A stretch of DNA of 64,000 nucleotides from an uncultured Saprospiraceae bacterium (lineage in GTDB: Bacteria; Bacteroidota; Bacteroidia; Chitinophagales; Saprospiraceae), in NCBI GenBank assembly GCA_937997635.1, contig CALLFA010000053.1, forward strand, positions 25,181 to 89,180, in the 5' to 3' direction. Under the pieces are notes generated by a model. It was not told the DNA's origin. It made no database searches and saw only the letters and a program-made list of their open reading frames with translations. The number at the start of each line of letters is the position of its first letter. Position 1 is the first letter of the stretch. Position numbers and translations under genes: made by a program. Of the stretch, positions 3,693-38,346 are shown one piece after another.

Positions 3693-3697
3693 TTTAG

Positions 3698-3737
3698 GTC
3701 AAGTGACAAGTTCAAGTGCAAGTGTCAAGTTCAAGTA
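3698..3737. repeat. Six tandem CAAGT-core repeats with 6-7 nt period
   Basis: The sequence gtCAAGTgaCAAGTtCAAGTgCAAGTgtCAAGTtCAAGT starts directly after the TAA stop at 3690-3692. Confidence 0.7.
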
Positions 3738-4097
3738 TCGGTATTTTCTTTGGCATTGACTAAATCGGAAGGTGTTTCCTGGTATTGCATTCAAGAAATG
3801 TTTCATTTTCATATGTATGGCATTATTGCTGCTGCTTTGATGCAATTGTGGATGAAAAAAGCAAATTTAAAACTGCAAATGGTTTTGTTGCAGAGTTTGC
3901 TGAAAAACCAAAAACCTATTGGACAAGTATATTTGGTGGGACATGTTTTGGGTTGATTAGCCAAATTTATTTTTTCCGAACTTTAGATGCCTCTTGCTCA
4001 AGTAAGCAATAGTAATGTAAGAATTATACAGATGTTAAGCCTAAACTCTATTTAGAACAGCTTTATTCCCCTACCTTACTAATCTCAAATTTTTGAC

Positions 4098-5378
4098 ATG
4101 AAAGAGGCTGCAACAGTATTTTTAATTCTAATTCCAGCGATCTATACACTTATCGTAGGAGAAGCCATCTATGCTTATGCCAAGGGTAATTTCAACTTCA
4201 GGAGCCTTGACACCATTTCTAGCCTAAGCGCAGGGATGACGAATGTCATTAAAAGTGTACTTGGATTAACCATTATCATAGTTGGATACAAATTTTTCTT
4301 TGAGCATTTTGCATTGGTCGAAAGACAGAAAGGGTGGGTTACATATTTGCTTGCATTAATAGGTCTTGACTTTGCTACGTACTGGTATCATCGGTTAGCG
4401 CATCATGTCAATATATTTTGGAATAGACATGTCATCCACCATTCGGGTGAAGAATTTAATATGGCGACAGCATTGAGACAATCCATCTCTAAGTTTGTCA
4501 ACATCAGTGTATTCTTTATGATACCCGCTGCTATTTTGGGTGTGCCTCCAATGGTGATTGCCATCGTGACGCCTTTCCATCTGTTTGTGCAAGTCTGGTA
4601 TCACACCATTCATGTTGGTAAATTGGGTTGGTTAGAATACATCATCGTGACGCCTTCTCAGCATCGTGTCCATCATGCGATTAACAAAATCTATATGGAC
4701 AAGAATCTGTCTCCTGTCTTCTGCATATGGGACAGACTATTTGGCACCTTTCAAGAAGAGTTGGAAGAAGAACCATGTGTCTATGGTGTCACCCGACAAG
4801 TAAAAACTTGGAATCCCATTAAAATAAACATCAGTCATCTGTGGCTACTGATTAAAGATGCATGGCGAGCAGAAAACGTATTCGACAAATTTAGAATTTG
4901 GTTTATGCCAACTGGCTGGAGACCAGAAGACGTCAAAGAAAAATATCCAGTTGTATCAGCAGATCCGTACACGTTTGAGAAATACGATACCAACGCTTCA
5001 TTGGCCATTAAAGTCTGGTCGTGGTTTCAATTTTCATTATTGGTATTCATGCTTTTCCATTTGTTGTTCATGATTGTAGAGATAGGTTCACCACAAATTT
5101 ATATCTATGGTATATTCATGCTCTTTTTTGTGTACAGTTATACAACGTTGATGGACTTGGATGCTTCTGCTATGTGGTTAGAAATCATTAAGTCAACCAT
5201 AGGCATTGGGATTATTTACCAAACTGGTTCTTGGTTTTCCATAGACAGCATGCTTCCGTTTGGCACCGTCATCTTTGCAGCATACTTTATCATATCAGCA
5301 GCTGTTGTTTCCTATTTTGTCCATTTCGACTTAGGTCAGAGGAATGAAAATTTCGGTGGTGAACTAAGCACCAACTAA
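4098..5378 (+). CDS. Fatty acid hydroxylase / sterol desaturase family membrane protein
   Basis: Histidine boxes HRLAHH, HVIHH and HRVHH are present in a polytopic membrane protein of 426 aa with a hydrophobic C-terminal extension. Confidence 0.85.
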   Translation: MKEAATVFLILIPAIYTLIVGEAIYAYAKGNFNFRSLDTISSLSAGMTNVIKSVLGLTIIIVGYKFFFEHFALVERQKGWVTYLLALIGLDFATYWYHRLAHHVNIFWNRHVIHHSGEEFNMATALRQSISKFVNISVFFMIPAAILGVPPMVIAIVTPFHLFVQVWYHTIHVGKLGWLEYIIVTPSQHRVHHAINKIYMDKNLSPVFCIWDRLFGTFQEELEEEPCVYGVTRQVKTWNPIKINISHLWLLIKDAWRAENVFDKFRIWFMPTGWRPEDVKEKYPVVSADPYTFEKYDTNASLAIKVWSWFQFSLLVFMLFHLLFMIVEIGSPQIYIYGIFMLFFVYSYTTLMDLDASAMWLEIIKSTIGIGIIYQTGSWFSIDSMLPFGTVIFAAYFIISAAVVSYFVHFDLGQRNENFGGELSTN

Positions 5379-5386
5379 TCGAACGG

Positions 5387-5947
5387 TTAAAAGCGCTTCC
5401 CAACAGATATGCCAATCAATCCAATCGCTCCTTGGCCGGTAGGCTCTCCTTCCGTACGTACATTCCATTCCCAACCAAAACCAAGAATAGGTCGAATAAC
5501 AATATCAGATGACGTCAAGATGGTGTAGCCAATACTTGCTGTTGGCTGCAATACGGTAATGCTTGTTTCGCCTTCTGTCATCGTATCGACATTGGTCCAA
5601 TCAATATTGCTAAACCAAAAGTCATTCTTAAACTCCAAATGCAAGCCACGAAAGTCATTCTTAAAATAATGCTGATAGCCAACACTAAAGCCTGGACCAC
5701 CACCCACTTCAGTCGTCTGCACCCCAAGGTCACGATGATCGAATGAATTGTAGCCTAGGCGTAAAGCAACTCTTCCGTTGTCACTTATTGCTCTGTCAAT
5801 TGTAATACCTGGAAGTATGCCTGTCGGATACACTTGCAGTTGAATAGAGACATCTGTTGTCCTTTGTGCTAGTGATATCTGCGCAAAAGATATGAGGCCA
5901 ATACCCAATATTATCAGTTGGCTAATTCGTTTTTTGAAATGGATCAT
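5387..5947 (-). CDS. Outer-membrane beta-barrel (porin-family) protein
   Basis: I chose the internal ATG at 5947, which gives the signal peptide MIHFKKRISQLIILGIGLISFAQISLAQ. The protein has an alternating beta-strand pattern and ends in an aromatic residue (...SVGKRF). Confidence 0.55.
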   Translation of the reverse strand: MIHFKKRISQLIILGIGLISFAQISLAQRTTDVSIQLQVYPTGILPGITIDRAISDNGRVALRLGYNSFDHRDLGVQTTEVGGGPGFSVGYQHYFKNDFRGLHLEFKNDFWFSNIDWTNVDTMTEGETSITVLQPTASIGYTILTSSDIVIRPILGFGWEWNVRTEGEPTGQGAIGLIGISVGKRF

Positions 5948-6214
5948 TAATAAGGCGGTTTTATGATTTAACAGATCAATATTAGGAAAAATATTTATGT
6001 GCTCTGGGATATTATTCAACAGGTGCTTAAAACAGATGTCTCACCATTGGCTACTAAGTTGAAAATTTCACGGGTTACGGATAATTGTTTGCAGTGCCTC
6101 TCGAAGGAGGAAGATGTGCTGTCATTACATATTGGGCAATCATGGAATCCTTTATGGATAGGCCTCTTGGGCTACGTTCTACATTACAACCTACACGTAG
6201 ATTTATAAATCAGA

Positions 6215-6469
6215 TTAATAACCATCTTGCCTATGCATCAGCTTTTCTACACTAACGATTTTGATAAAATCATCTATTTCATACAACAGTCTATATACCC
6301 CAACCCTAATTCGGTAAATATCATGTTTCCCTTGTAACTTTTTACAGTTTGTGGGACGAGGATTTTCTGATAGTCCTTTCATTGCTGAGTATATTTTAGG
6401 TACATACTCTTTGGGTATTGTTCTTAATTTTTTCGCCACATTTTTCTTAATCGTGACTTTATAACTCAT
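6215..6469 (-). CDS. Type II toxin, RelE/ParE family
   Basis: 84 aa. The C-terminal motif is IYRIRVGVYRLLYEIDDFIKIVSVEKLMHRQDGY. It overlaps the upstream small ORF by 11 nt. Confidence 0.85.
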   Translation of the reverse strand: MSYKVTIKKNVAKKLRTIPKEYVPKIYSAMKGLSENPRPTNCKKLQGKHDIYRIRVGVYRLLYEIDDFIKIVSVEKLMHRQDGY

Positions 6470-6653
6470 CGAGTAATCCTTCTGTTTTTAATTGCTGCCC
6501 TAATTCTTCTAAGGCAATACTGTCTTCATCCTTTACAGCCTCAACCATTAATGCATCATAAAAGTCTTCCCAAATTTCACCATGTTTTTCTAAATCGATT
6601 TGTACAAAACGCCTCTTATTATTTCGATCTGTTACATATAGTATCCCTTCCAT
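6459..6653 (-). CDS. Putative cognate antitoxin
   Basis: A 64-aa acidic protein encoded immediately upstream of, and overlapping, the RelE-like gene. This is the classic antitoxin-then-toxin order. Confidence 0.6.
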   Translation of the reverse strand: MEGILYVTDRNNKRRFVQIDLEKHGEIWEDFYDALMVEAVKDEDSIALEELGQQLKTEGLLDEL

Positions 6654-6802
6654 TTTAAATTGATTTTACTTTATCAAAGATAACGCTATTTATTTCGTTT
6701 TGATTCCTGGTAAACTTGCAGATTTTGTTAGTTCTTTAGAGCCTACACATGAAACAAACAATATCAGAGGTAGAAAATGTTTTATATTTCTTATAGATTT
6801 CT

Positions 6803-8206
6803 TCACCCTCCACTAACAATCTCCATCAATGTCGCACATATAATCGCCCCATAAGTACCCAATGCATATCCAAGCACAGCCATCAATACCCCTACAGGTG
6901 CAAGCGAGGTCGAAAAAGCAGAAGCTACCACAGGCGCAGAAGCCGCACCACCCACATTTGCTTGGCTACCGACAGCCACAAAGAAGAATGGTGCTTTTAT
7001 CAGTTTTGCCACGATAAGCAACAAGGTCACATGGACAAGCATCCATACAATGCCAATGGCAAACAACCCTAAGTTTTTGAAGACTTGGCCTAAATTCATT
7101 TTCATGCCAATGGTAGCGACTAGGATGTAGATAAAAATACTCCCCCAGCGCGAGGCCCCAATTCCTTCCAGTTTTCTGAATTTTGTAAAGGACAAAATGA
7201 GTCCAAAGGTGGTAGATATAACGATGAGCCAGAAAAAGTGGGACATAAGAGAATTGAGTCGAATTTTATTAAGTGTTTCTTCAAATCCTTTCATAAGAGG
7301 TGTGAGGATATCAGCGCCAAGATGTGAAAGCGCCACGCCTCCAAAGCCTACAGCCATTAGTGCAAATAAGGTTCGGGTAGAGGGCATCTCCAAGATACTT
7401 GCACGATAATCTGCCACACTATTCTTGAGGTTTTCTATCGAAGAATTATCCGCTTTGAGCCACCCATCAATCTTGTCTGAGATGTTTGCACCATACAGCA
7501 AAAATCCCATCCATATATTGGCAACGACGACATCGACAACAATCATCGTCCCGAAGAGATTGTCCTTTACTTCATAGATTTCTTTCATGGCAGTCTGATT
7601 GGCTCCTCCTCCAATCCAGCTGCCTGCCACTGTCGACAAGCCTCTCCAAACATCATCAGGATTTCCACCAATCACATTGGGAGCTACATAGGATATGACA
7701 AGTAAAGCAATAGGTCCACCGATAATGATCCCTAGTGTCGCCGTCAGAAACATGATGATTGCCTTAGATCCTAGCTTGCGTATGCCGCCAAAATCGATAC
7801 CCAAACAAAAGAAAACCAAACTGGCTGGTAAGAGATATCTGGATGCGACGTAGTATAAATTAGAATGTCCTTGTACTGCTTTATAATCAGAAGCAGGAAC
7901 ACCATGCTCACTTAGAAAATCTGTAATGCCATCATAACTCAAGCCTCTTGGAAGTATCAAGTTATGTTGTGCTAGTAAGTCAGTCAATCCATCGGTATAC
8001 CAGTGGGGAGCAATCAAGCCCAATGGCCAGTTGAGTAATGCAGGTATAAAATACGCCAACAATAATCCTGGGACAAACTTGTAAAACTTCGTCCAAAACG
8101 GCGTTTTTAAATGCTCTGTATGGAAAATCAGAGCCAGGACAACAATGAGAATTCCGAATGTAACGGCATCACTTGTAAAGACTGGCGAAATAGAGAGATA
8201 GGGCAT
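6803..8206 (-). CDS. DUF819 family integral membrane protein
   Basis: 467 aa and polytopic. Motifs GSWIGGGANQTAM and GSQANVGGAASAPVVASAF...LGYALGTYG resemble Bacillus YjcL/DUF819. Confidence 0.7.
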   Translation of the reverse strand: MPYLSISPVFTSDAVTFGILIVVLALIFHTEHLKTPFWTKFYKFVPGLLLAYFIPALLNWPLGLIAPHWYTDGLTDLLAQHNLILPRGLSYDGITDFLSEHGVPASDYKAVQGHSNLYYVASRYLLPASLVFFCLGIDFGGIRKLGSKAIIMFLTATLGIIIGGPIALLVISYVAPNVIGGNPDDVWRGLSTVAGSWIGGGANQTAMKEIYEVKDNLFGTMIVVDVVVANIWMGFLLYGANISDKIDGWLKADNSSIENLKNSVADYRASILEMPSTRTLFALMAVGFGGVALSHLGADILTPLMKGFEETLNKIRLNSLMSHFFWLIVISTTFGLILSFTKFRKLEGIGASRWGSIFIYILVATIGMKMNLGQVFKNLGLFAIGIVWMLVHVTLLLIVAKLIKAPFFFVAVGSQANVGGAASAPVVASAFSTSLAPVGVLMAVLGYALGTYGAIICATLMEIVSGG

Positions 8207-17558: not shown

Positions 17559-18701
17559 ATGTTCGACCGCGCTGTCTTACATCTAGACCTCGACTGCTTT
17601 TTCGTATCAGTTGAGTGTCTTAAAAATTCTTCCTTTAAAGGAAAACCGCTGATCATCGGCGGGACCAGTCGGCGTGGCGTCGTAGCTTCTTGCAGTTATG
17701 AAGCAAGACGATTTGGTGTACATTCTGCGATGCCCATGAAGATGGCATTGCGTCTGTGTCCTGATGCGTTAGTCATTAAAGGTGATGGCGATAGCTACTC
17801 TTATTATTCAAAACTCGTTACCGAAATCATTGCGGACGATGCCCCTCTCTTAGAGAAAGCATCCATCGACGAGTTCTATATTGACCTTACGGGAATGGAC
17901 CGCTACTTCGGTTGTCTGTCTTGGTCTAAAGAACTTCGTTACCGCGTCATTAAAGAATCCGGATTGCCAATATCCTTTGGTCTATCCGTCAACAAGCTGG
18001 TCTCAAAAGTGGGCGCCGGCGAAGGCAAACCAAATGGTGAAACAGAAGTGCCCCGCGGCACGGAAAAAGCATTTCTGTCACCTTTGCCTGTTCGTAAAAT
18101 TCCTGGCGTCGGCAAAGAAACCAACAAGAAGCTCAGTTTCATGGGCGTGCGCCAAGTCAAAACACTCAGCCAAATTCCTGTCCGCCTACTCGAGCGCGAA
18201 TTCGGTAAATTCGGCCGCAACCTCTGGGAAAAAGCCAATGCCATAGACAGCACTCCTGTCATCCCCTATAGCGAAAAAAAATCCATCTCCAAAGAGCGCA
18301 CCTTCATGGAAGACACGCTCGACCTACAGATGATCAGACATAAATTAATGGGCCTCGTAGACAAACTCGCCTACGAACTCCGTAACACGTATAAACTAAC
18401 ATCCTGCGTCACCGTAAAAATCAGATACGCCGATTTTAATACCTATACCAAGCAACGCCGCATTGCCTATACAGCAAACGACAGACAATTAATCTGCCAC
18501 ACCCACGAGTTGTTTGACAGCCTCTACGACAGACGCCAACTCATCCGGTTGATCGGCGTAAAGTTTAGCGGACTCGTGCCTGGCCATTACCAAATCAGCT
18601 TATTTGATGACAGTATGAAAGCGATTAGTTTGTTGGAGCAGCGGGATCGGATTCGGAAGCGGTTTGGGGAAGACTCTATTGGATTTGCAGCAGCTATTTA
18701 G
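17559..18701 (+). CDS. dinB: Y-family DNA polymerase IV, apparently catalytically competent
   Basis: The N-terminus is VLHLDLDCFFVSVE. SIDEFYIDLTG provides the catalytic D/E residues, and the KPNG motif is present. 380 aa. Confidence 0.9.
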   Translation: MFDRAVLHLDLDCFFVSVECLKNSSFKGKPLIIGGTSRRGVVASCSYEARRFGVHSAMPMKMALRLCPDALVIKGDGDSYSYYSKLVTEIIADDAPLLEKASIDEFYIDLTGMDRYFGCLSWSKELRYRVIKESGLPISFGLSVNKLVSKVGAGEGKPNGETEVPRGTEKAFLSPLPVRKIPGVGKETNKKLSFMGVRQVKTLSQIPVRLLEREFGKFGRNLWEKANAIDSTPVIPYSEKKSISKERTFMEDTLDLQMIRHKLMGLVDKLAYELRNTYKLTSCVTVKIRYADFNTYTKQRRIAYTANDRQLICHTHELFDSLYDRRQLIRLIGVKFSGLVPGHYQISLFDDSMKAISLLEQRDRIRKRFGEDSIGFAAAI

Positions 18702-18710
18702 CTGCTGCAA

Positions 18711-18824
18711 AAGTGATGAATCCCGCGCGTGCCGCGGGAAGTGATGAAACCTGCGTAGCCGCAGGAAGTGATGAGTCCCGCGCATGCGGCGGGAAATGAT
18801 GGGCCCGCCTGGCGGCGAGGCGGG
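18711..18824 (+). repeat. Array of four tandem 27-31 nt units, each a conserved head (AAGTGATGAA-like) plus a GC-rich hairpin
   Basis: The units are aagtgatgaatCCCGCGcgtgcCGCGGG, aagtgatgaaaCCTGCGtagcCGCAGG, aagtgatgagtCCCGCgcatgcgGCGGG and aaatgatgggCCCGCCtggcGGCGaGGcggg. The array starts 10 nt after the dinB stop codon. Confidence 0.85.
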
Positions 18825-18912
18825 TGTGTATGGGGAGTGTGCTTGCCTGTCGACAAGACACTTAGAGGGTGAGCTACGGCAGCAAATTTTTTATAATTAG
18901 AAAACTATACAA

Positions 18913-19266
18913 ATGAAAAAGAGAATAATTGAAGAGAAAAGTTTTGATTTTGCGCTTGCGATTATTGAGTTGTATAAAACATTAAGTGCGCAAAACGAAT
19001 ATGTATTTGCCAAGCAAATTTTAAGATCGGGTACGAGTATTGGCGCTAATGTGCAAGAAGCTCAGGCGGCACAAAGTAAGAAAGACTTTATTGCTAAAAT
19101 GTCAATCTCATTAAAAGAAGCAAGGGAGACTTTGTACTGGTTAAGGCTCCTAGAAACAAGCCGTTTGATCAACTTTGACTTCACCAAACTAAAGGCAGAA
19201 ATACACGACATTATCCGCATTCTAACAGCCATTATCAAAACCGCACAAAAGAATCAACAAAGTTAA
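18913..19266 (+). CDS. Four-helix-bundle protein (23S rRNA intervening-sequence protein / Avd family)
   Basis: 117 aa. The sequence FDFALAIIELYKTL...ILRSGTSIGANVQEAQAAQSKKDFIAKMSISLKEARETLYWLRLL carries the family signature. Confidence 0.85.
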   Translation: MKKRIIEEKSFDFALAIIELYKTLSAQNEYVFAKQILRSGTSIGANVQEAQAAQSKKDFIAKMSISLKEARETLYWLRLLETSRLINFDFTKLKAEIHDIIRILTAIIKTAQKNQQS

Positions 19267-19294
19267 TCAGTGTGAAGAAGCCTAAGCCACATCT

Positions 19295-19451
19295 GCCTCG
19301 CCGCCAGGCGGACACATCACCTTTGCCGAACTGGCCTCACCGCCAGGCGGGCCCACCACTTCCCGCGGCACGCGCGGGATTCATAACTTCCCGCGGCATA
19401 CGCGGGATTCATCACTCAACACTTCCCGCGGCAACGCGGGTTTCATCACTT
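19295..19451 (-). repeat. Array of five hairpin units of the same family, inverted relative to 18711..18824
   Basis: The reverse complement reads aagtgatgaaaCCCGCGttgcCGCGGG, ...agtgatgaatCCCGCGtatgcCGCGGG, aagttatgaatCCCGCGcgtgcCGCGGG, aagtggtgggCCCGCCtggcGGtGaGG and ggtgatgtgtCCGCCtggcGGCGaGG. Confidence 0.85.
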
Positions 19452-19481
19452 TATTCAAATACATATCATGTATTTGAATAA
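19451..19481 (+). promoter_or_regulatory. Perfect 14-bp inverted repeat (3-nt spacer) that includes the dnaE2 start codon
   Basis: The sequence is ttattcaaatacat-atc-ATGtatttgaataa. The right arm begins with the ATG at 19468. It is a candidate operator or a hairpin that sequesters the start codon. Confidence 0.4.
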
Positions 19482-22400
19482 TCATACATATTACAGCCTC
19501 CGCCACGGCACCCTCTCCCCAGAAGAGCTCGCCGCACACGCCGCCCAACACGGCATCACCAGCCTTGCACTCACCGACATCAACAACACCTCTTGTGCTT
19601 ACCAATTCATCAAAGCTTGTGAGAAGAATAAAATCAAACCAGTACTCGGCATCGAATTTCGTGATACACCACAAACACCAAAACTAGACACTGATTCAAA
19701 TAATAAAACTCAAGAGCCAAAACCCTACACAAACAATTCAACACCTACCTTGTCGGCAGGCAGATTCAACATTAAACAGTCAACATTACTCTACGTCGGG
19801 ATAGCTAAAAACAACGAAGGATGGCGCGAACTCTGCGAACATCTGACACACAGCTCACTAGAGAATACGCCGTTGCCAGTTCATGCACCTGCGTTTGAGA
19901 ATGCCTATATCATCTATCGAAAATTACCGCCGCATAAAGGCATCAACCAACTGCGGGACAATGAATACATCGGGGTGACGCCTGATGAGGTTAACCGTTT
20001 GTATTCGTCTTATCTAAAAGACCACAAAGATAAATTGGTGGTGTTTGCTCCTGTTACTTTTTTGGATCAGGATGGATTTAAAGTGCATAAGTTGCTTCGA
20101 TGTATCGACCTAAATATCATCATTGGGAAACTTGATCGGCAACATCATGGAAAAGCCAATGAAGTCTTTCACACTCCTGAGCAATTGGAAAAAATATATG
20201 AGCAGTATCCAGAGCTTATAGTGAACGCGAAAAAGATCATGGACAGTTGTTCGATTGATATGTGCGATAAGTCGACGAATAATCGAAAGACATTTACGGG
20301 CTCTCATGCGGGTGATGTCGAGTTGCTCCACAAGCTGTCTGTAAACGGTTGCTTGCGTCGCTATGGCAAACACAACCGCAAAGCCATGACCCGAACATTG
20401 AAGGAATTAAAGGTGATTCACAAGCTTGGCTTTGCGCCGTACTTTTTGATTACGTGGGACATTGTGCGGTATGCACAAACGGCAGGATATCATCACGTCG
20501 GTCGTGGGAGTGGTGCCAATTCTATCGTCGCCTATAATCTGTACATCACCGATGTTGATCCGCTTGATTTGGATCTCTACTTTGAACGATTCATCAATCC
20601 GCATAGGAGTTCGCCACCAGATTTTGATATTGACTTTTCTTGGGATGAGCGCGACGATGTGACGGATTATATTTTTAAACGGTATGGCACAGAACACACG
20701 GCGCTGCTTGCCACATACAACACCTTTAAAGGCAAGTCCATCATTAGAGAATTGGGCAAAGTTGTTGGTTTGCCAAAAGCCGACATCGACATCATAGTGA
20801 ATGAGCCATACAATGATGCCAAGCACCATCCCTTTGCCAAACACATCTTTCGCTACGGTGGTATGATGGAAGGATTTCCCAATTATCTCTCCATTCACGC
20901 GGGTGGGATATTGATAAGTGAAAAGCCACTCAACTACCACACGGCTTTGCAGATGATGCCAAAGGGGTTTCCTGTGACACACTTCGACATGTATGGTGCC
21001 GAAGATTTGGAATTCCATAAATACGATGTGTTGAGTCAACGGGGACTTGGACACATCAAAGATGCTGTGAAGTTGATCGAACAAAATAAGGGCATGGCTG
21101 TGGATATCCACAACATTCCAAAATTAAAAGAAGATCCGCAGGTTAAAGAGCAGCTAAAATCAGGGCAATGCATCGGTTGCTTTTATATCGAGTCTCCTGC
21201 GATGCGAGGCTTGCTTACTAAGTTGAAATGCGACAACTACATTCATCTGGTCGCTGCCAGTTCCATCATCCGTCCTGGTGTTGCCAAATCTGGAATGATG
21301 CGTGAATACATCAAGCGATTCCACGACCCCGATAGCTTTAATCACATCCACCCCGTTTTTGAAGAACACTTAGGAGAGACCTTTGGCGTGATGGTGTATC
21401 AAGAAGATGTGATGAAAATTGTCCATCATTTTTCAGGATTAGATTTAGATGAATCTGATGTCTTACGACGAATTATGACTGGCAAGAAGAAGAGTTCTGA
21501 TACCTTCCATCGGCTACGTGAAAAATATTACCTCAACTGCAAAGAGCGCGGTTATCCACAAGCATTGAGTGAAGAAGTGTGGCGGCAGATCGCAAGTTTT
21601 AGCGGCTACTCCTTTTGCAAGGCACACTCTGCCAGTTTTGCCGTAGAGTCTTTTCAAAGTTTGTATCTCAAGACCTATTATCCCAAAGAATTTATGGTTG
21701 CGGTCATCAATAACTTTGGTGGCTTTTATCGTACTGAAGTCTATGTACACGAAGCGAGAATGTGTGGCGCAAACATCGAAGCCCCTTGTGTCAACAACAG
21801 CACTTACTTAACTAATATATATGACAATGATGTCTACATTGGCCTCATCCACATTGCGGACCTCCAGCGCAAACTTGGGCAACAGATCGTACACGAGCGA
21901 TTGGTCAATGGCGAGTATCGCAGCATGCAAGATTTTGTCAGTCGCATTGACATCCGTAAAGATCAATTGGAAATTTTAATCCGCATCGGCGCCTTCCGAT
22001 TCACGGGCATGAATAAATACGAATTGATGTGGGAGAAAAATGCTGTCCACAATCCTATCATCAAACACTACGGAGAGAAAAGTCTGTTTGAAGTGGAAGC
22101 CGAAACCTTTAGTTTGCCAAGTTTGACAGAAGGCGAATACGAACAAGCCTTTGACGAAATTGAATTGCTTGGCTTTCCTTTGTGTTCGCCCTTCGATTTA
22201 TTGACGACGGAGTATCGCGGGCAAATTGTAGCCAAAGATTTGAAGAAATGCATCGGCAAGCGCGTACAAATGATGGGCTATTACGTTGCACAAAAACATG
22301 TCACGACAGTTAATCGCAAACACATGAGTTTTGGTACGTGGCTAGATTGTGAAGGCCGATTTTTTGACACCACACATTTTCCACCAGCGCTTGCTGCTCA

Positions 22401-22521
22401 TCCGTTTCGAGGTAGAGGTTGTTATCTGATCACTGGAAAGATTGTCGAAGATTTTGGCTTTCCTGGTTTGGAAGTGGAGAAGATGGAGAAGCTGGCTTAT
22501 GTGAAGGATGGACGTTATTAA
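19468..22521 (+). CDS. dnaE2: Error-prone DNA polymerase III alpha-like (DnaE2/ImuC type)
   Basis: 1017 aa. It has a PHP N-terminus (HTYYSLRHG...ALTDINN) and a polymerase core (GRGSGANSIVAYNLYITDVDPL, PPDFDIDFS). There is no long C-terminal tau/beta region. It is paired with a Y-family polymerase gene. Confidence 0.9.
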   Translation: MYLNNHTYYSLRHGTLSPEELAAHAAQHGITSLALTDINNTSCAYQFIKACEKNKIKPVLGIEFRDTPQTPKLDTDSNNKTQEPKPYTNNSTPTLSAGRFNIKQSTLLYVGIAKNNEGWRELCEHLTHSSLENTPLPVHAPAFENAYIIYRKLPPHKGINQLRDNEYIGVTPDEVNRLYSSYLKDHKDKLVVFAPVTFLDQDGFKVHKLLRCIDLNIIIGKLDRQHHGKANEVFHTPEQLEKIYEQYPELIVNAKKIMDSCSIDMCDKSTNNRKTFTGSHAGDVELLHKLSVNGCLRRYGKHNRKAMTRTLKELKVIHKLGFAPYFLITWDIVRYAQTAGYHHVGRGSGANSIVAYNLYITDVDPLDLDLYFERFINPHRSSPPDFDIDFSWDERDDVTDYIFKRYGTEHTALLATYNTFKGKSIIRELGKVVGLPKADIDIIVNEPYNDAKHHPFAKHIFRYGGMMEGFPNYLSIHAGGILISEKPLNYHTALQMMPKGFPVTHFDMYGAEDLEFHKYDVLSQRGLGHIKDAVKLIEQNKGMAVDIHNIPKLKEDPQVKEQLKSGQCIGCFYIESPAMRGLLTKLKCDNYIHLVAASSIIRPGVAKSGMMREYIKRFHDPDSFNHIHPVFEEHLGETFGVMVYQEDVMKIVHHFSGLDLDESDVLRRIMTGKKKSSDTFHRLREKYYLNCKERGYPQALSEEVWRQIASFSGYSFCKAHSASFAVESFQSLYLKTYYPKEFMVAVINNFGGFYRTEVYVHEARMCGANIEAPCVNNSTYLTNIYDNDVYIGLIHIADLQRKLGQQIVHERLVNGEYRSMQDFVSRIDIRKDQLEILIRIGAFRFTGMNKYELMWEKNAVHNPIIKHYGEKSLFEVEAETFSLPSLTEGEYEQAFDEIELLGFPLCSPFDLLTTEYRGQIVAKDLKKCIGKRVQMMGYYVAQKHVTTVNRKHMSFGTWLDCEGRFFDTTHFPPALAAHPFRGRGCYLITGKIVEDFGFPGLEVEKMEKLAYVKDGRY

Positions 22522-22543
22522 ACCTGCCTAGCGACAGGCAGGT
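22522..22543 (+). terminator. 7-bp GC-rich stem-loop directly after the dnaE2 stop codon (terminator or REP-like element)
   Basis: The sequence is ACCTGCC-tagcgaca-GGCAGGT followed by ttaac. The T-tract is weak. Confidence 0.35.
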
Positions 22544-22783
22544 TTAACATTCAACATTGCCAAACCCAACGGATGAGTCTCACACTTTGTGTAAGACACG
22601 AACGCTTAAAAAGCGAGCTTGCAAACACCCAAACAGTGAGCTTGCCAACGCCCGAAATAGCTGGACCAACTCATCGAATGAATTCGACGGTACACAAGAC
22701 ACGAACGCTCTTGGAAAAAGGAAAACGTTTTAGGAATATGCACCACTCTTTCTTATTAATAATAGGAGTAAGTCTTATAAGAA

Positions 22784-32995: not shown

Positions 32996-33679
32996 ATGTG
33001 TGGGAGATCTTCACTTACTGTTACAGAGAAAGAGTTAGAAAAACGATTCAATGCTACGTTCTATAGCGAAGATCTTGAGCGATACAATCCTCTACCTAAT
33101 TTTAATGTTGCGCCTACGCACATGCATCCAGTGATGACAAATCTGGATCAAGAACACCTCCAATTTTTCAGGTGGGGATTGATTCCGTTTTGGGCGAAAG
33201 ACATCAAGGTCGGTTATAAGATGATCAATGCCAGAAAAGAAACACTACTAGAAAAAAACACATTCAAAAATGCTGTCAATAAAAAACGGTGTATTGTGCC
33301 TTTTGATGGATTCTATGAATGGAAAAAAACGGAAGACGGCAAACAACCGTATAGAATAGTTACAACAGATACAGACATTTTTAGCGTCGCCGGTTTATGG
33401 GAACGATGGAAATCTCCTGAAGGTCAAGACATCTATTCCTTTACCTTAATCACACAAGAACCGAATGAATTAATGACAGACATTCACAATCGGATGCCTG
33501 CCATATTGTTGCCAGATCAAGAGCGAGATTGGTTGGATATGACAATCCCTGCCGAAGAAGCTATACAGATGTTGGAGCCCTATCCTTCAGAGTTGATGAA
33601 GGCGTATCGGGTGTCGAAGAGGGTTGGCAATGTACGTGAAAACGACAAGGAATTAATTCATGAAGTGAATGAATCATGA
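32996..33679 (+). CDS. SOS response-associated peptidase (SRAP/YedK family abasic-site sensor)
   Basis: The N-terminus MCGRSSL carries the catalytic Cys2. FYEWKK and HNRMPAIL motifs are present. 227 aa. Confidence 0.9.
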   Translation: MCGRSSLTVTEKELEKRFNATFYSEDLERYNPLPNFNVAPTHMHPVMTNLDQEHLQFFRWGLIPFWAKDIKVGYKMINARKETLLEKNTFKNAVNKKRCIVPFDGFYEWKKTEDGKQPYRIVTTDTDIFSVAGLWERWKSPEGQDIYSFTLITQEPNELMTDIHNRMPAILLPDQERDWLDMTIPAEEAIQMLEPYPSELMKAYRVSKRVGNVRENDKELIHEVNES

Positions 33680-33950
33680 TGAATGCTCCTTTGTCGCAAG
33701 TTATGAATGCTCCTTTGTCGCAAGTTATGAATGCGCCCTATGTCGCAAGTGATGAATGCGCCTTTCAGTTGCAAGTGATGAATACTCCCTATCGGGAGTA
33801 AGTGTGGAGTCCCGCTTTTTAGGAATTAATTCACGAAGTGAATGAATAATGATGAATGCTCCTATGTCGCAAGTTATGAATGCGCCTTTCAGTTGCAAGT
33901 GATGAATGCTCCCTATCGGGAGTAAGTGTGGAGTCCCGCTTGATGCGGGA
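33680..33950 (+). repeat. Hairpin-repeat array of the same head motif family, including two identical 24-nt units and a second copy of the SRAP 3' end
   Basis: 33680-33703 and 33704-33727 are identical (tgaatgctcctttgtcgcaagtta). Degenerate units follow, with heads aagtgatgaat / aagttatgaat and hairpins CTCCCtatcGGGAG and TCCCGCttgatGCGGGA. The segment gaattaattcaYgaagtgaatgaatNatga occurs at 33650-33679 (end of the gene) and again at 33823-33852. Confidence 0.85.
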
Positions 33951-37416: not shown

Positions 37417-38130
37417 ATGTCAATGAGACTTAATAAATACATTGCTCATTGCGGCATTTGTTCGCGCCGCAAAGCAGTTGATCTAGTCAAGGGAGGTCGA
37501 GTCACCGTAAATGGTAAAGTGGAGACCAATCCAGCCTACGAAGTAGACCCCAAAGACAAAGTCAAATTCGATAATAAGACGGTCAAAGTAGAGAAGGAAA
37601 AGGTGTATATCTTGATGAATAAGCCTAAAAACACCTTGACGACAGTGTCTGATGATCGAGGAAGGCGAACCGTTTTAGACATCGTTTCCAAGAGAGTGAC
37701 CCAGCGAGTGTATCCTGTTGGTCGCTTAGATAGAAATACAACAGGGTTACTTTTATTGACCAATGATGGCGATTTGGCAAAGAAATTATCTCATCCTTCT
37801 CACGGGGTCAAAAAAATCTATCACGCTACTTTAGACCGCAATTTACTTCCTTCCGATTTAGACAAAATAGCGAGAGGCATAGAATTAGACGATGGTCTAG
37901 CTGAGGTTGATCATGTCGGCTACATAGATGGCGAATCCAAGAATCAAGTGATGCTAGAACTCCACTCTGGCAGAAATAGAATCATCAGACGGATTTTTGA
38001 GCATCTGGATTATACCGTGTCAAAACTTGATCGTATTTATATGGGAGGCTTGACCAAGAAGGATATACCGAGGGGATGGTTTCGGGAGTTAACGCCGAAG
38101 GAATTGATTATGTTGAAGCATTTTGTGTAG
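37417..38130 (+). CDS. rluB: Pseudouridine synthase, RsuA/RluB family, with an S4 domain
   Basis: I chose the start MSMRLNKYIAHCGICSRRKAVDLVKGGRVTVNG (S4 domain). The catalytic loop is YPVGRLDRNTTGLLLLTNDG. Confidence 0.9.
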   Translation: MSMRLNKYIAHCGICSRRKAVDLVKGGRVTVNGKVETNPAYEVDPKDKVKFDNKTVKVEKEKVYILMNKPKNTLTTVSDDRGRRTVLDIVSKRVTQRVYPVGRLDRNTTGLLLLTNDGDLAKKLSHPSHGVKKIYHATLDRNLLPSDLDKIARGIELDDGLAEVDHVGYIDGESKNQVMLELHSGRNRIIRRIFEHLDYTVSKLDRIYMGGLTKKDIPRGWFRELTPKELIMLKHFV

Positions 38131-38133
38131 GGA

Positions 38134-38346
38134 TTAAGTTGAAGTTATTTTGAGTTGAGATTGAGATGATTCGTACGTTATTAGGTTTTTATTTTTCAAT
38201 AACCACCTCGTCCAGCTGATGGCGTCCACCCTTCCAAAGAGGGGAATTTTCATACTCCAATGGGCATGACCCATCGCTTCCTTTGCAGATGTTTTAATGA
38301 TTGCTTGCAGACCCTCTTGTTCTTTATCATTCCTTAGTTTTTTCAT
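38134..38346 (-). pseudogene. Chimeric ORF whose 5' part is a diverged copy of the pth 3' end
   Basis: RNDKEQEGLQAIIKTSAKEA matches the Pth C-terminus WNEKEREGLPAIIKNSAEA at about 13 of 18 residues. At the DNA level, 38275-38333 aligns with 39560-39615. The rest of the ORF runs into a repeat element. Confidence 0.55.
38241..38286. repeat. ~45-nt repeat containing a palindrome, copy 1
   Basis: ggggaattttcatactccaatgggcatgacccatcgcttcctttgc matches 39438-39482. Confidence 0.8.

Follow-up and report, generated by a model that had tools for sequence, protein, structure and literature searches.

The subject of this report is a small gene cassette in a 64,000-nucleotide stretch of DNA (the window) from an uncultured Saprospiraceae bacterium (GenBank assembly GCA_937997635.1, contig CALLFA010000053.1, positions 25,181 to 89,180 of the forward strand), where it interrupts a mutagenic pair of polymerase genes, dinB and dnaE2, and may affect their co-expression. 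The upstream host gene is a dinB-like gene for a Y-family DNA polymerase IV (17559-18701, plus strand); its 380-aa product carries the Pfam domains IMS, IMS_C and IMS_HHH and passed the NCBIfam cutoff for DNA polymerase IV (PRK02406, 303 bits, cutoff 256). The downstream host gene is dnaE2-like (19468-22521, plus strand) and encodes a DnaE-type polymerase of 1017 aa with the Pfam domains PHP, DNA_pol3_alpha, finger and HHH_6. It passed the superfamily cutoff of TIGR00594 and scored 478 bits with the error-prone-polymerase model NF004225, below the cutoff of 939. With dinB ending at 18701 and dnaE2 starting at 19468, the spacer measures 766 bp. An original prediction, made from the letters of this DNA, had the spacer filled by the gene of a 117-aa four-helix-bundle (4HB) protein between inverted arrays of repeat units, and the open reading frame (ORF; 18913-19266) and its Pfam and TIGR02436 matches confirmed such a gene. 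It lies on the plus strand, as do both host genes.

The protein belongs to the S23p/Avd family (PF05635/TIGR02436). It matched the Pfam model 23S_rRNA_IVP with an E value of 1.3e-25 and 90.1 bits (cutoff 33.8; residues 5-105 of the 106-position model) and the TIGR02436 model 'four helix bundle protein' with 108.8 bits (cutoff 24). The best match in the PDB was 2RLD, a solved Bacteroides protein with five identical chains in the entry (E 4.6e-28), and S23p of X. campestris is described as a toroidal homopentamer in the summary given by PMC4990558, citing Lin 2006. An alignment of 26 4HB sequences contained 34 invariant columns, including T41-N46, E49 and K68-E72, which fall in the core motifs TSIGANvqEA and KEARET-YW. 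When the gene was compared with its orthologues in the two closest loci (L006 and L008), the ratio of non-synonymous to synonymous divergence (dN/dS) was 0.09-0.11, indicating purifying selection and a functional protein.

Arrays of the same unit family stand on both sides of the gene. The left array (18711-18824, plus strand) consists of four units with boundaries at 18711, 18739, 18766 and 18794, each made of a head, AAGTGATGAA (core AGTGATG), and a GC-rich hairpin of -9 to -14 kcal/mol. The heads start at 18712, 18740, 18767 and 18795, a spacing of 28, 27 and 28 nt. In the right array (19295-19451, minus strand) the units are inverted; the minus strand carries five strong heads, at 19450, 19423, 19416, 19388 and 19360, and the two inner units are of the GCCTCNCCGCCAGGCGG type. 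The four left and five inverted right units and their head-and-hairpin design had all been predicted at these positions, and one weak inner head on the right can now be added. The pattern AAGTGATGAANCCCGCG, with up to three mismatches allowed, occurred six times, always within the two arrays, against 0.28 occurrences expected. The period in both arrays is 27-28 nt with a hairpin after each head, and only the right-side pair 19423/19416 is spaced by 7 nt. A rule of '28 = 4 x 7' was considered and rejected, as related arrays have periods of 24-27 nt. Hairpin stem sequences differ from unit to unit on a constant architecture, every unit is self-complementary, and the G+C content of the arrays is 60-69%, compared to 38% for the window.

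The two arrays are also complementary to each other, and somewhat more so than the roughly 80% first estimated. The longest match joins 18758-18821 to 19334-19397 (64 nt, 88%) and forms the core of a predicted stem enclosing the ORF; further matches cover 44 nt at 89% and 36 nt at 94%, giving 86-94% overall across 36-83 nt. When 18690-19470 was folded as RNA, the minimum free energy (MFE) structure contained the long-range stem that the original prediction had expected around the ORF, at -324.3 kcal/mol compared to -218.2 +/- 8.5 for shuffled sequences (z = -12.5). The leader from the left array to the ATG (18825-18912, plus strand) takes part in this fold, its G-rich part pairing with 19270-19295. 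Its final 30 nt are A/T-rich and include TATAAT at 18892-18897; a scan for consensus promoters yielded none ahead of the 4HB ORF.

The 4HB proteins closest to that of the window, 81% and 77% identical to it, are encoded at the same position between dinB and dnaE2 (L006 and L008). Their flanking genes encode DinB proteins 95% or 92% and DnaE2 proteins 89% or 83% identical to those of the window, and the outer neighbours differ. In the L006 spacer, AGTGTTGAGTGTTGAGTGATGA stands on the left and CACTCAACAC heads stand on the right, the latter in four units of about 60 nt; the L006 arms are complementary over only about 20 nt. In L008 the units measure about 25 nt, each being AAGTGGTGAA plus a hairpin, and are also present in reverse complement. 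The heads are kept in inverted orientation in both, whereas the hairpin sequences are unrelated to those of the window; a closing stem is predicted in both loci despite the different arm sequences. Since synonymous divergence (dS) of dinB between the window and these relatives is about 0.9, neutral DNA should be nearly randomised, and the retention of heads, orientation and hairpin architecture points to constraint. The occurrence of the same gene without arrays in related genomes had been named as a finding that would speak against a cassette, and the relatives at this site carry inverted heads instead. As to the head-and-hairpin arms as a whole, the short heads proved to be the conserved part, while the GC hairpins are replaced in relatives and absent from most of the family.

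More distant relatives extended this picture. In L090 (DinB 91% identical) and L092 (78%) the spacer holds a 4HB gene with plain heptamer arms, again with the heads in inverted orientation but without the hairpins, so that the cassette occupies this site in four other genomes with DinB identities of 78-95%, and the idea of a recent insertion was abandoned. In two genomes with 84% identical DinB the pair was found without the 4HB cassette: the spacer holds a VapBC-like toxin-antitoxin pair in L091 and 583 nt of unrelated sequence in L099. The comparison of related spacers suggested in the original prediction therefore yielded sites lacking the cassette, but no empty site, all seven spacers being occupied. 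When a metagenome collection was scanned for the dinB end followed by the dnaE2 start across a spacer of at most 61 nt, nothing was found, and a pattern for the dinB end alone returned one unrelated contig; contigs known to carry the site were not among the matches of these scans. No direct (target-site) duplication was evident at the cassette ends, where the inverted arms are present.

Some details of these spacers deserve mention. In L091 the replacement (6147-7040) consists of an 80-aa gene and a PIN_3 gene, and just past the dinB stop the sequence ATGAAGTAATCTAAATCACTTCA, possibly a remnant, resembles a single head opposite a single inverted one. In L092 two 4HB cassettes flank a single dinB, one between a LexA-like regulator region and dinB (4451-4804, minus strand) and one between dinB and dnaE2 (6295-6648), the latter with ten GTTGAAT copies on its left.

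Two perfect palindromes mark the junctions with the host genes, both on the plus strand. The first (18684-18696/18699-18711; 13-nt arms, 2-nt loop) contains the dinB stop codon TAG, and its right half abuts the first head; an imperfect form exists in L008 and none in L006. The second (19451-19464/19468-19481; 14-nt arms, 3-nt loop) has the dnaE2 start and first codons as its right half, a hairpin that could limit dnaE2 translation. A version with 11-nt arms, TTCAAATACAT nnn ATGTATTTGAA, is kept in L006 (4651-4677) and L008 (987-1013) and absent in L090. The palindromes were rejected as SOS operators, matching neither CTAA-N5-TTAG nor GGA-N5-TCC (PMC8565304); the first of these patterns is not found as an exact match anywhere in the window.

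The presence of a 4HB gene under purifying selection at exactly this site in five genomes, with DinB 78-100% identical, might suggest that the protein is a dedicated, vertically inherited partner of DinB and DnaE2, for example a stand-in for ImuA, with the arrays as regulatory sequences. We regard this as very improbable. Not one of 80 family loci from other species adjoined dinB or dnaE2, the same design was found in an rnf operon and beside a thiolase-like gene, L091 and L099 retain the polymerase pair without the 4HB gene, and the junction palindromes are unlike the SOS boxes of Bacteroidetes (PMC8565304).

The window derives from a metagenome-assembled genome (MAG), and contigs of the same population (L001, L002 and L005) were compared with it. 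They diverged from the window only in the left arm. In L002 the third unit is recombined differently. L001 has 177 extra nt, in which two further units and a diverged leader are followed by the initial 29 nt of a 4HB ORF, and the junction at their downstream end is also carried by L005, an independent short-read contig. In both L001 and L005 the 29-nt ORF start is fused to GATTTGCAGCAGCTGCTGCAAA, a shortened form of the palindrome at the dinB end, after which more units follow. The third unit of the window reads as a recombinant of the two corresponding units of L001, and three left-arm haplotypes can be distinguished. From these contigs the arrays appear to be recombinationally active in the natural population. 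Together with the two like inner units of the right arm, this would fit a putative ancestry from two partly overlapping cassettes.

Array duplications that carry the first or last codons of the adjacent gene were seen at L001 9640-9860, L005 1-70, L090 6150-6240, where the ATGATCAGTATGAGAA start region is present twice, and L057 5690-5840. Such dragged codons suggest slippage or template switching starting in the arrays. The arrays also disrupt assembly, two Logan contigs, L003 and L004, starting within the left array.

In order to see how general this architecture is, we surveyed 78-83 4HB loci from many phyla, one genome per species, which had been found by protein motifs only. These loci are the best 80 tblastn matches among more than 600 candidates and not a random sample. 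For each locus the 150 nt upstream of the ORF were aligned to the reverse complement of the 150 nt downstream, and a score of at least 28 was taken as an arm pair. Inverted arms were found at 54 of 78 loci, arms in direct orientation at 7 of 78, and arms in displaced controls in 2 of 142 cases (Wilcoxon p = 3e-12). The inverted arms hug the ORF, and in some cassettes they mirror each other perfectly, as in L054 with 34 of 34 positions.

The arms turned out to be tandem arrays with a short period. Among 175 arrays within 200 nt of a 4HB ORF, 142 had a period of 7, 14 or 21, and period-7 arrays were about 12 times denser beside 4HB ORFs. Unsupervised alignment of the heptamers gave the consensus ARTKNWR, with A at.81, R as A.71 or G.28, T at.93, K as T.62 or G.36, followed by N, W and R (5.7 bits in total). 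The window head AGTGATG matches this consensus, and the window heads AGTGATG, AATGATG, AGTTATG, AGTGTTG and AGTGGTG scored 4.7-7.8 bits on the family model. The heads thus appear to be the form that the family heptamer takes in this lineage, and the GC hairpins an addition peculiar to this genome group.

Copy numbers were strikingly uneven. In-phase heptamer runs numbered 377, compared to 44 in block shuffles, and comprised 124 runs of three copies, 97 of four, 130 of five, 18 of six and 5 of seven. The cutoff after five copies was seen on both sides of the ORF (26 runs of five and 4 of six on the left; 26 and 6 on the right) and also in arrays distant from any 4HB gene. Array lengths determined by Tandem Repeats Finder (TRF), independently of the heptamer model, peaked at 31-34 nt.

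The cassettes are also arranged regularly with respect to their surroundings. The orientation of the arrays was mirror-symmetric around the ORF at 46 of 79 loci. Both neighbouring genes lay on the cassette strand at 62 of 75 loci and both on the opposite strand at 6, with median spacers of 56 and 54 nt. The cassette between rnfC and rnfD in L094 (3958-4390, about 430 nt) shows the compactness of the design, its gaps of 43 and 39 nt holding four heptamers per side, and another cassette sits between the thiolase-like gene and the next gene. An intervening sequence (IVS)-like cassette placed in a protein-coding operon, as originally proposed, is supported by the inverted arms and by this co-orientation. 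Taken together, the loci largely establish a common design, judged from sequence comparison: a PF05635 gene in a short spacer of co-directional host genes, between mirror-image heptamer arrays of typically five copies per side.

An orthologous cassette was present in Epilithonimonas, Chryseobacterium, Elizabethkingia and a fourth Weeksellaceae genome. Its arms are invariant at 30 of 34 and 25 of 30 positions, mismatched positions included, while only 3 of 21 third codon positions of the upstream gene are invariant. The upstream arm in Chryseobacterium and Elizabethkingia (L056 and L026) reads AATTATAGATTTTAAATTATAAATTTTAGAT.

Heads similar to those of the cassette were found elsewhere in the window as well. 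A second array (33677-33950, plus strand) contains AAGTKATGAA heads in one orientation with weak to strong hairpins and without a 4HB gene. It lies downstream of an SRAP-like gene (32996-33679), has no inverted partner and includes a tandem duplication (33648-33741/33821-33916, about 91% identical) that re-copies the final 30 nt or so of the SRAP-like gene together with units. Right behind the dnaE2 stop (22522-22559) comes the GC hairpin AACCTGCCTAGCGACAGGCAGGTT and after it TAACATTCAACATT, equivalent to two inverted heptamers of the family type. A short head-like repeat, CAAGTGACAAGTTCAAGTGCAAGTGTCAAGTTCAAGT, stands behind a stop codon at 3696-3740, and further head-like repeats, ATGTTGAAG, AAGTTGAAG and TTGAGTTGAG, were noticed near 38.1 kb (38100-38170).

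Heads standing without a 4HB gene at 33677-33950, 22546-22559 and 3696-3740, and the known intergenic heptamer arrays of Bacteroidetes and Cyanobacteria (PMC4679880), would be expected if these were generic intergenic repeats, arisen by slippage or REP-like, that flank the gene by chance and have no functional link with it. The roughly 12-fold density beside 4HB ORFs, the mirror symmetry around the ORF and an arm conservation resembling that of first and second codon positions are hard to reconcile with such a chance association, to which we give next to no credence.

Arms without a gene were seen as well. We found 13 ORF-less '5+5' hairpins (>5<5), consisting of arms only, in about 600 kb surveyed. 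In a Ferruginibacter MAG (L057) four of them lie within 8 kb (73-141, 1530-1601, 2478-2547 and 5638-5709), each in a short spacer that ends right before the next ATG; the density of these elements is very high in some genomes. In an Acidobacteriota MAG (L055; 4376-4512, 4941-5146 and 6256-6443), blocks of five inverted heptamers alternate with a constant spacer of 17-19 nt, TTGATTCGAAGTRGTACCT, in what looks like a higher-order repeat of the same five-copy module.

Such arms-only elements invite an explanation at the DNA level, in which a recombinase acting in trans, or else the 4HB protein, recognises the arrays as REPIN- or MITE-like terminal repeats, the 5+5 hairpins represent non-autonomous derivatives and the dinB-dnaE2 spacer is an insertion hot spot. 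Cassettes do occur in unrelated operons (dinB-dnaE2, rnfC-rnfD and beside the thiolase-like gene), the dinB-dnaE2 spacer is taken up by a VapBC-like pair in L091 and by unrelated sequence in L099, and units recombine among strain variants. The 4HB protein of the rnf context is 70% identical to that of the window, whereas the L090 protein from the same site is only 62-64% identical to it. Against mobility of this kind, neither a transposase nor a target-site duplication nor an empty site was found, and near-identical copies at different places were not seen. The cassettes are old and stably inherited, across four Weeksellaceae genera and in five genomes at the dinB site, and the orientation bias of 62:6 suggests that selection acts on the transcript. 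Phylogenetic incongruence was not established by the identities above, since values of 60-70% lie within the plateau of the family. Independent insertions at the dinB site were likewise considered and left unsupported: identities of 62-70% fall within that plateau, and the 4HB gene exceeds dinB in non-synonymous divergence by the same factor in L006 and L090 (about 4.2), which is compatible with vertical descent. On balance, we consider a DNA-level mobile element quite improbable.

A stronger competitor is suggested by the 23S rRNA. The arms might do nothing but pair into a stem cut by RNase III, which would release the 4HB mRNA and separate the two polymerase messages, the heptamers being incidental. 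A long closing stem is indeed predicted in the window and in relatives with different arms, perfectly mirrored arms exist (L054), and so do the ORF-less 5+5 hairpins. In 23S rRNA, the terminal stem of the homologous cassettes is 28 bp long and was shown to be cut by RNase III, and tandem heptamers precede the ORF (PMC4990558). Pairing as such leaves the A-R-T-K core, the 7-nt period and the sharp five-copy limit unexplained, however, and the mismatched arm positions are conserved across genera rather than repaired. Pairing of the sense-strand RNA should also produce an excess of G:U-compatible mismatches, and none was found: 62 were of the G:U type and 96 of the A:C type, in a test that is weak, as most mismatches are heptamer variants. 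Within that limit, the result makes it unlikely that base pairing alone is the selected property. L006, moreover, manages with arms complementary over a mere 20 nt or so. The emphasis of the original prediction on a long stem was borne out to the extent that a closing stem is predicted here and in L006 and L008, but a stem alone accounts neither for units that are each self-complementary nor for the same units in the array at 33677-33950, which has no partner. We consider this explanation unlikely, if still a serious candidate.

That the window cassette is a lineage-specific version of this widespread cassette is largely shown. Our preferred reading, to which we give an even chance, is that it works as an IVS-type cassette expressed from the host transcript, with the conserved heads as cis elements. 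Its starting points were observed directly: the cassette design, its conservation, the orientation bias, the five-copy limit and the purifying selection on the gene. Transcription of the host operon would run through the cassette and express it within the dinB-dnaE2 transcript, as the 62:6 orientation bias and the lack of any promoter placed upstream of the ORF suggest. Expression from the host transcript would explain why the cassettes are almost always co-oriented with their neighbours.

The heads would then act as functional cis elements. One pentameric 4HB ring may bind one array on single-stranded nucleic acid, with one head per subunit; this proposal draws on the copy number of five, the 7-nt period of the heptamers, the conservation of their first four positions and the homopentameric ring known for the protein family. 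In the lineage of the window, the hairpins would fold out locally and so bring the heads side by side, as they are in plain heptamer arrays. The inverted arrays would in turn allow the transcript to fold back and loop the cassette out, in the geometry that is cut by RNase III in rRNA IVSs. Competition between protein binding and fold-back might serve autoregulation, or might control the disturbance that the cassette causes in its host operon.

Several points weigh against this reading. In RNA, the motif is present only in the upstream array, the downstream array being its complement, so that binding to single-stranded RNA leaves the second array explained by fold-back alone. The left array of the window has four strong heads and not five, and in the hairpin variant the heads are spaced by 24-28 nt, which is no strict multiple of 7. 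The five-copy limit could reflect a constraint on stem length, at about 35 bp, and not the number of subunits. The heptamer model was derived from the arrays that were later counted, although neither the TRF length peak nor the shuffle control depends on it. The orientation test used crude ORF calling, and the selection of the best 80 of more than 600 candidates bears on the survey as a whole. Release of the 4HB message by RNase III and mobility at the DNA level could each hold together with the preferred reading.

A wider claim can be built on the preferred reading, namely that PF05635 pentamers are sequence-specific readers of five-fold heptamer arrays, and that 4HB cassettes, ORF-less 5+5 hairpins and many heptamer repeats of Bacteroidota and Cyanobacteria form one element class spanning phyla, of which the rRNA IVSs are the special case that landed in 23S rRNA. 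It is offered tentatively, and we would sooner expect it to fail than to hold. S23p/Avd-like 4HB proteins, with at least thousands of relatives at E <= 0.001, rank with the most common proteins of unknown function in bacteria, and the question of where the rRNA IVSs came from, through which they were first noticed, dates back to the 1990s. If operon cassettes with five-fold arms matching the symmetry of their protein are real, rRNA IVSs would be one landing site among many, and many intergenic heptamer arrays would gain a candidate function.

Several known systems were compared with the locus and set aside. A CRISPR array was rejected, as the units abut without spacers and no CRISPR-DR family was matched even at E <= 1. 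A large clustering screen does list '23S rRNA IVP' among CRISPR-array-linked domains (PMC10910872); heptamer arrays scored as CRISPR arrays could, speculatively, create such an association. No rRNA or other Rfam family reached its gathering score in the 64-kb window or in 13 related loci, and at E <= 1 the spacer gave chance-level matches only, including a C/D-box snoRNA model triggered by GUGAUGA. A kink-turn or C-box was dropped for the reason that the heptamers of the family at large lack a GUGAUGA-type motif.

Avd of diversity-generating retroelements (DGRs) is reportedly a pentameric ring that binds nucleic acid and protein. Its four-helix-bundle fold is homologous to that of the family described here (PMC10053308), but heptamer arms are no DGR feature. 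A DGR at this locus was rejected, with no RVT family among the precomputed Pfam matches of called genes within 10 kb on either side. No pair of template and variable repeats was noticed within the same 10 kb; the dedicated repeat search covered 18650-19520, where it found the arrays only.

RAYT genes, single-copy transposase genes, are flanked by REP sequences, and a possible likeness to the window lies in a single small gene flanked by inverted repeats of a conserved head plus hairpin. REPINs themselves are gene-less inverted doublets dispersed in intergenic spacers (PMC3116915). Head-and-hairpin units in inverted arrays are present in the window, and gene-less inverted doublets were seen in other genomes but not in the window. 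The gene, in contrast, matches PF05635 only and is no Y1 tyrosine transposase of the IS200/IS605 type; it has no known catalytic motif. The 4HB family further differs in its five-fold tandem heptamers, and no recent copying was found.

Among the closest known counterparts of the arrays themselves are the intergenic heptamer repeats reported from Beggiatoaceae, Cyanobacteria and Bacteroidetes, whose function is unexplained (PMC4679880). The TAACTGA repeats and the cyanobacterial STRR heptamers have a period of 7, mostly 2-6 copies and a 'forward' orientation, and lie just upstream of gene starts (PMC4679880). That work concerns one particular heptamer in the case of TAACTGA and draws no link to PF05635 genes or to mirror-image pairs. 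The heads of the window, in addition, are spaced by hairpins.

For the proposed reading of repeats by a ring, TRAP offers a mechanistic analogy only. TRAP is a ring-shaped homo-oligomer of 11 subunits that reads (G/U)AG repeats in the single-stranded RNA of the trp leader, one per subunit, in competition with an alternative fold. It differs from the 4HB protein in its unrelated fold, its 11 subunits and its triplet repeats.

Among the nearest known systems is the IVS with an S23p ORF in the 23S rRNA of Coxiella burnetii, Leptospira, Xanthomonas and Brucella. Its protein belongs to PF05635, as in the window; its ORF lies inside terminal inverted repeats that form a stem, as predicted for the window; and it is transcribed as part of the host RNA, as the window cassette probably is. 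Sizes are alike as well, the Coxiella IVS measuring 428-444 nt and the rnfC-rnfD cassette about 430 nt. The Coxiella IVS has strain-variable tandem heptamers upstream of its ATG (PMC4990558), although the Coxiella heptamer, GACAGAT, does not match ARTKNWR. Cleavage of the stem by RNase III is known of the rRNA IVSs (PMC4990558). The window cassette differs in that its host RNA is a protein-coding operon and not helix 25 or 45 of 23S rRNA, consistent with the lack of an Rfam match, and in that its arms are arrays of a conserved motif interleaved with GC hairpins. Full-text searches, in which subscription journals were mostly uncovered, gave no paper that connects inverted heptamer arrays with genes of PF05635. 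The cassette is thus of a known kind, an IVS-type element found here outside rRNA, and what seems to be new is the repeat structure and the copy number of its arms.

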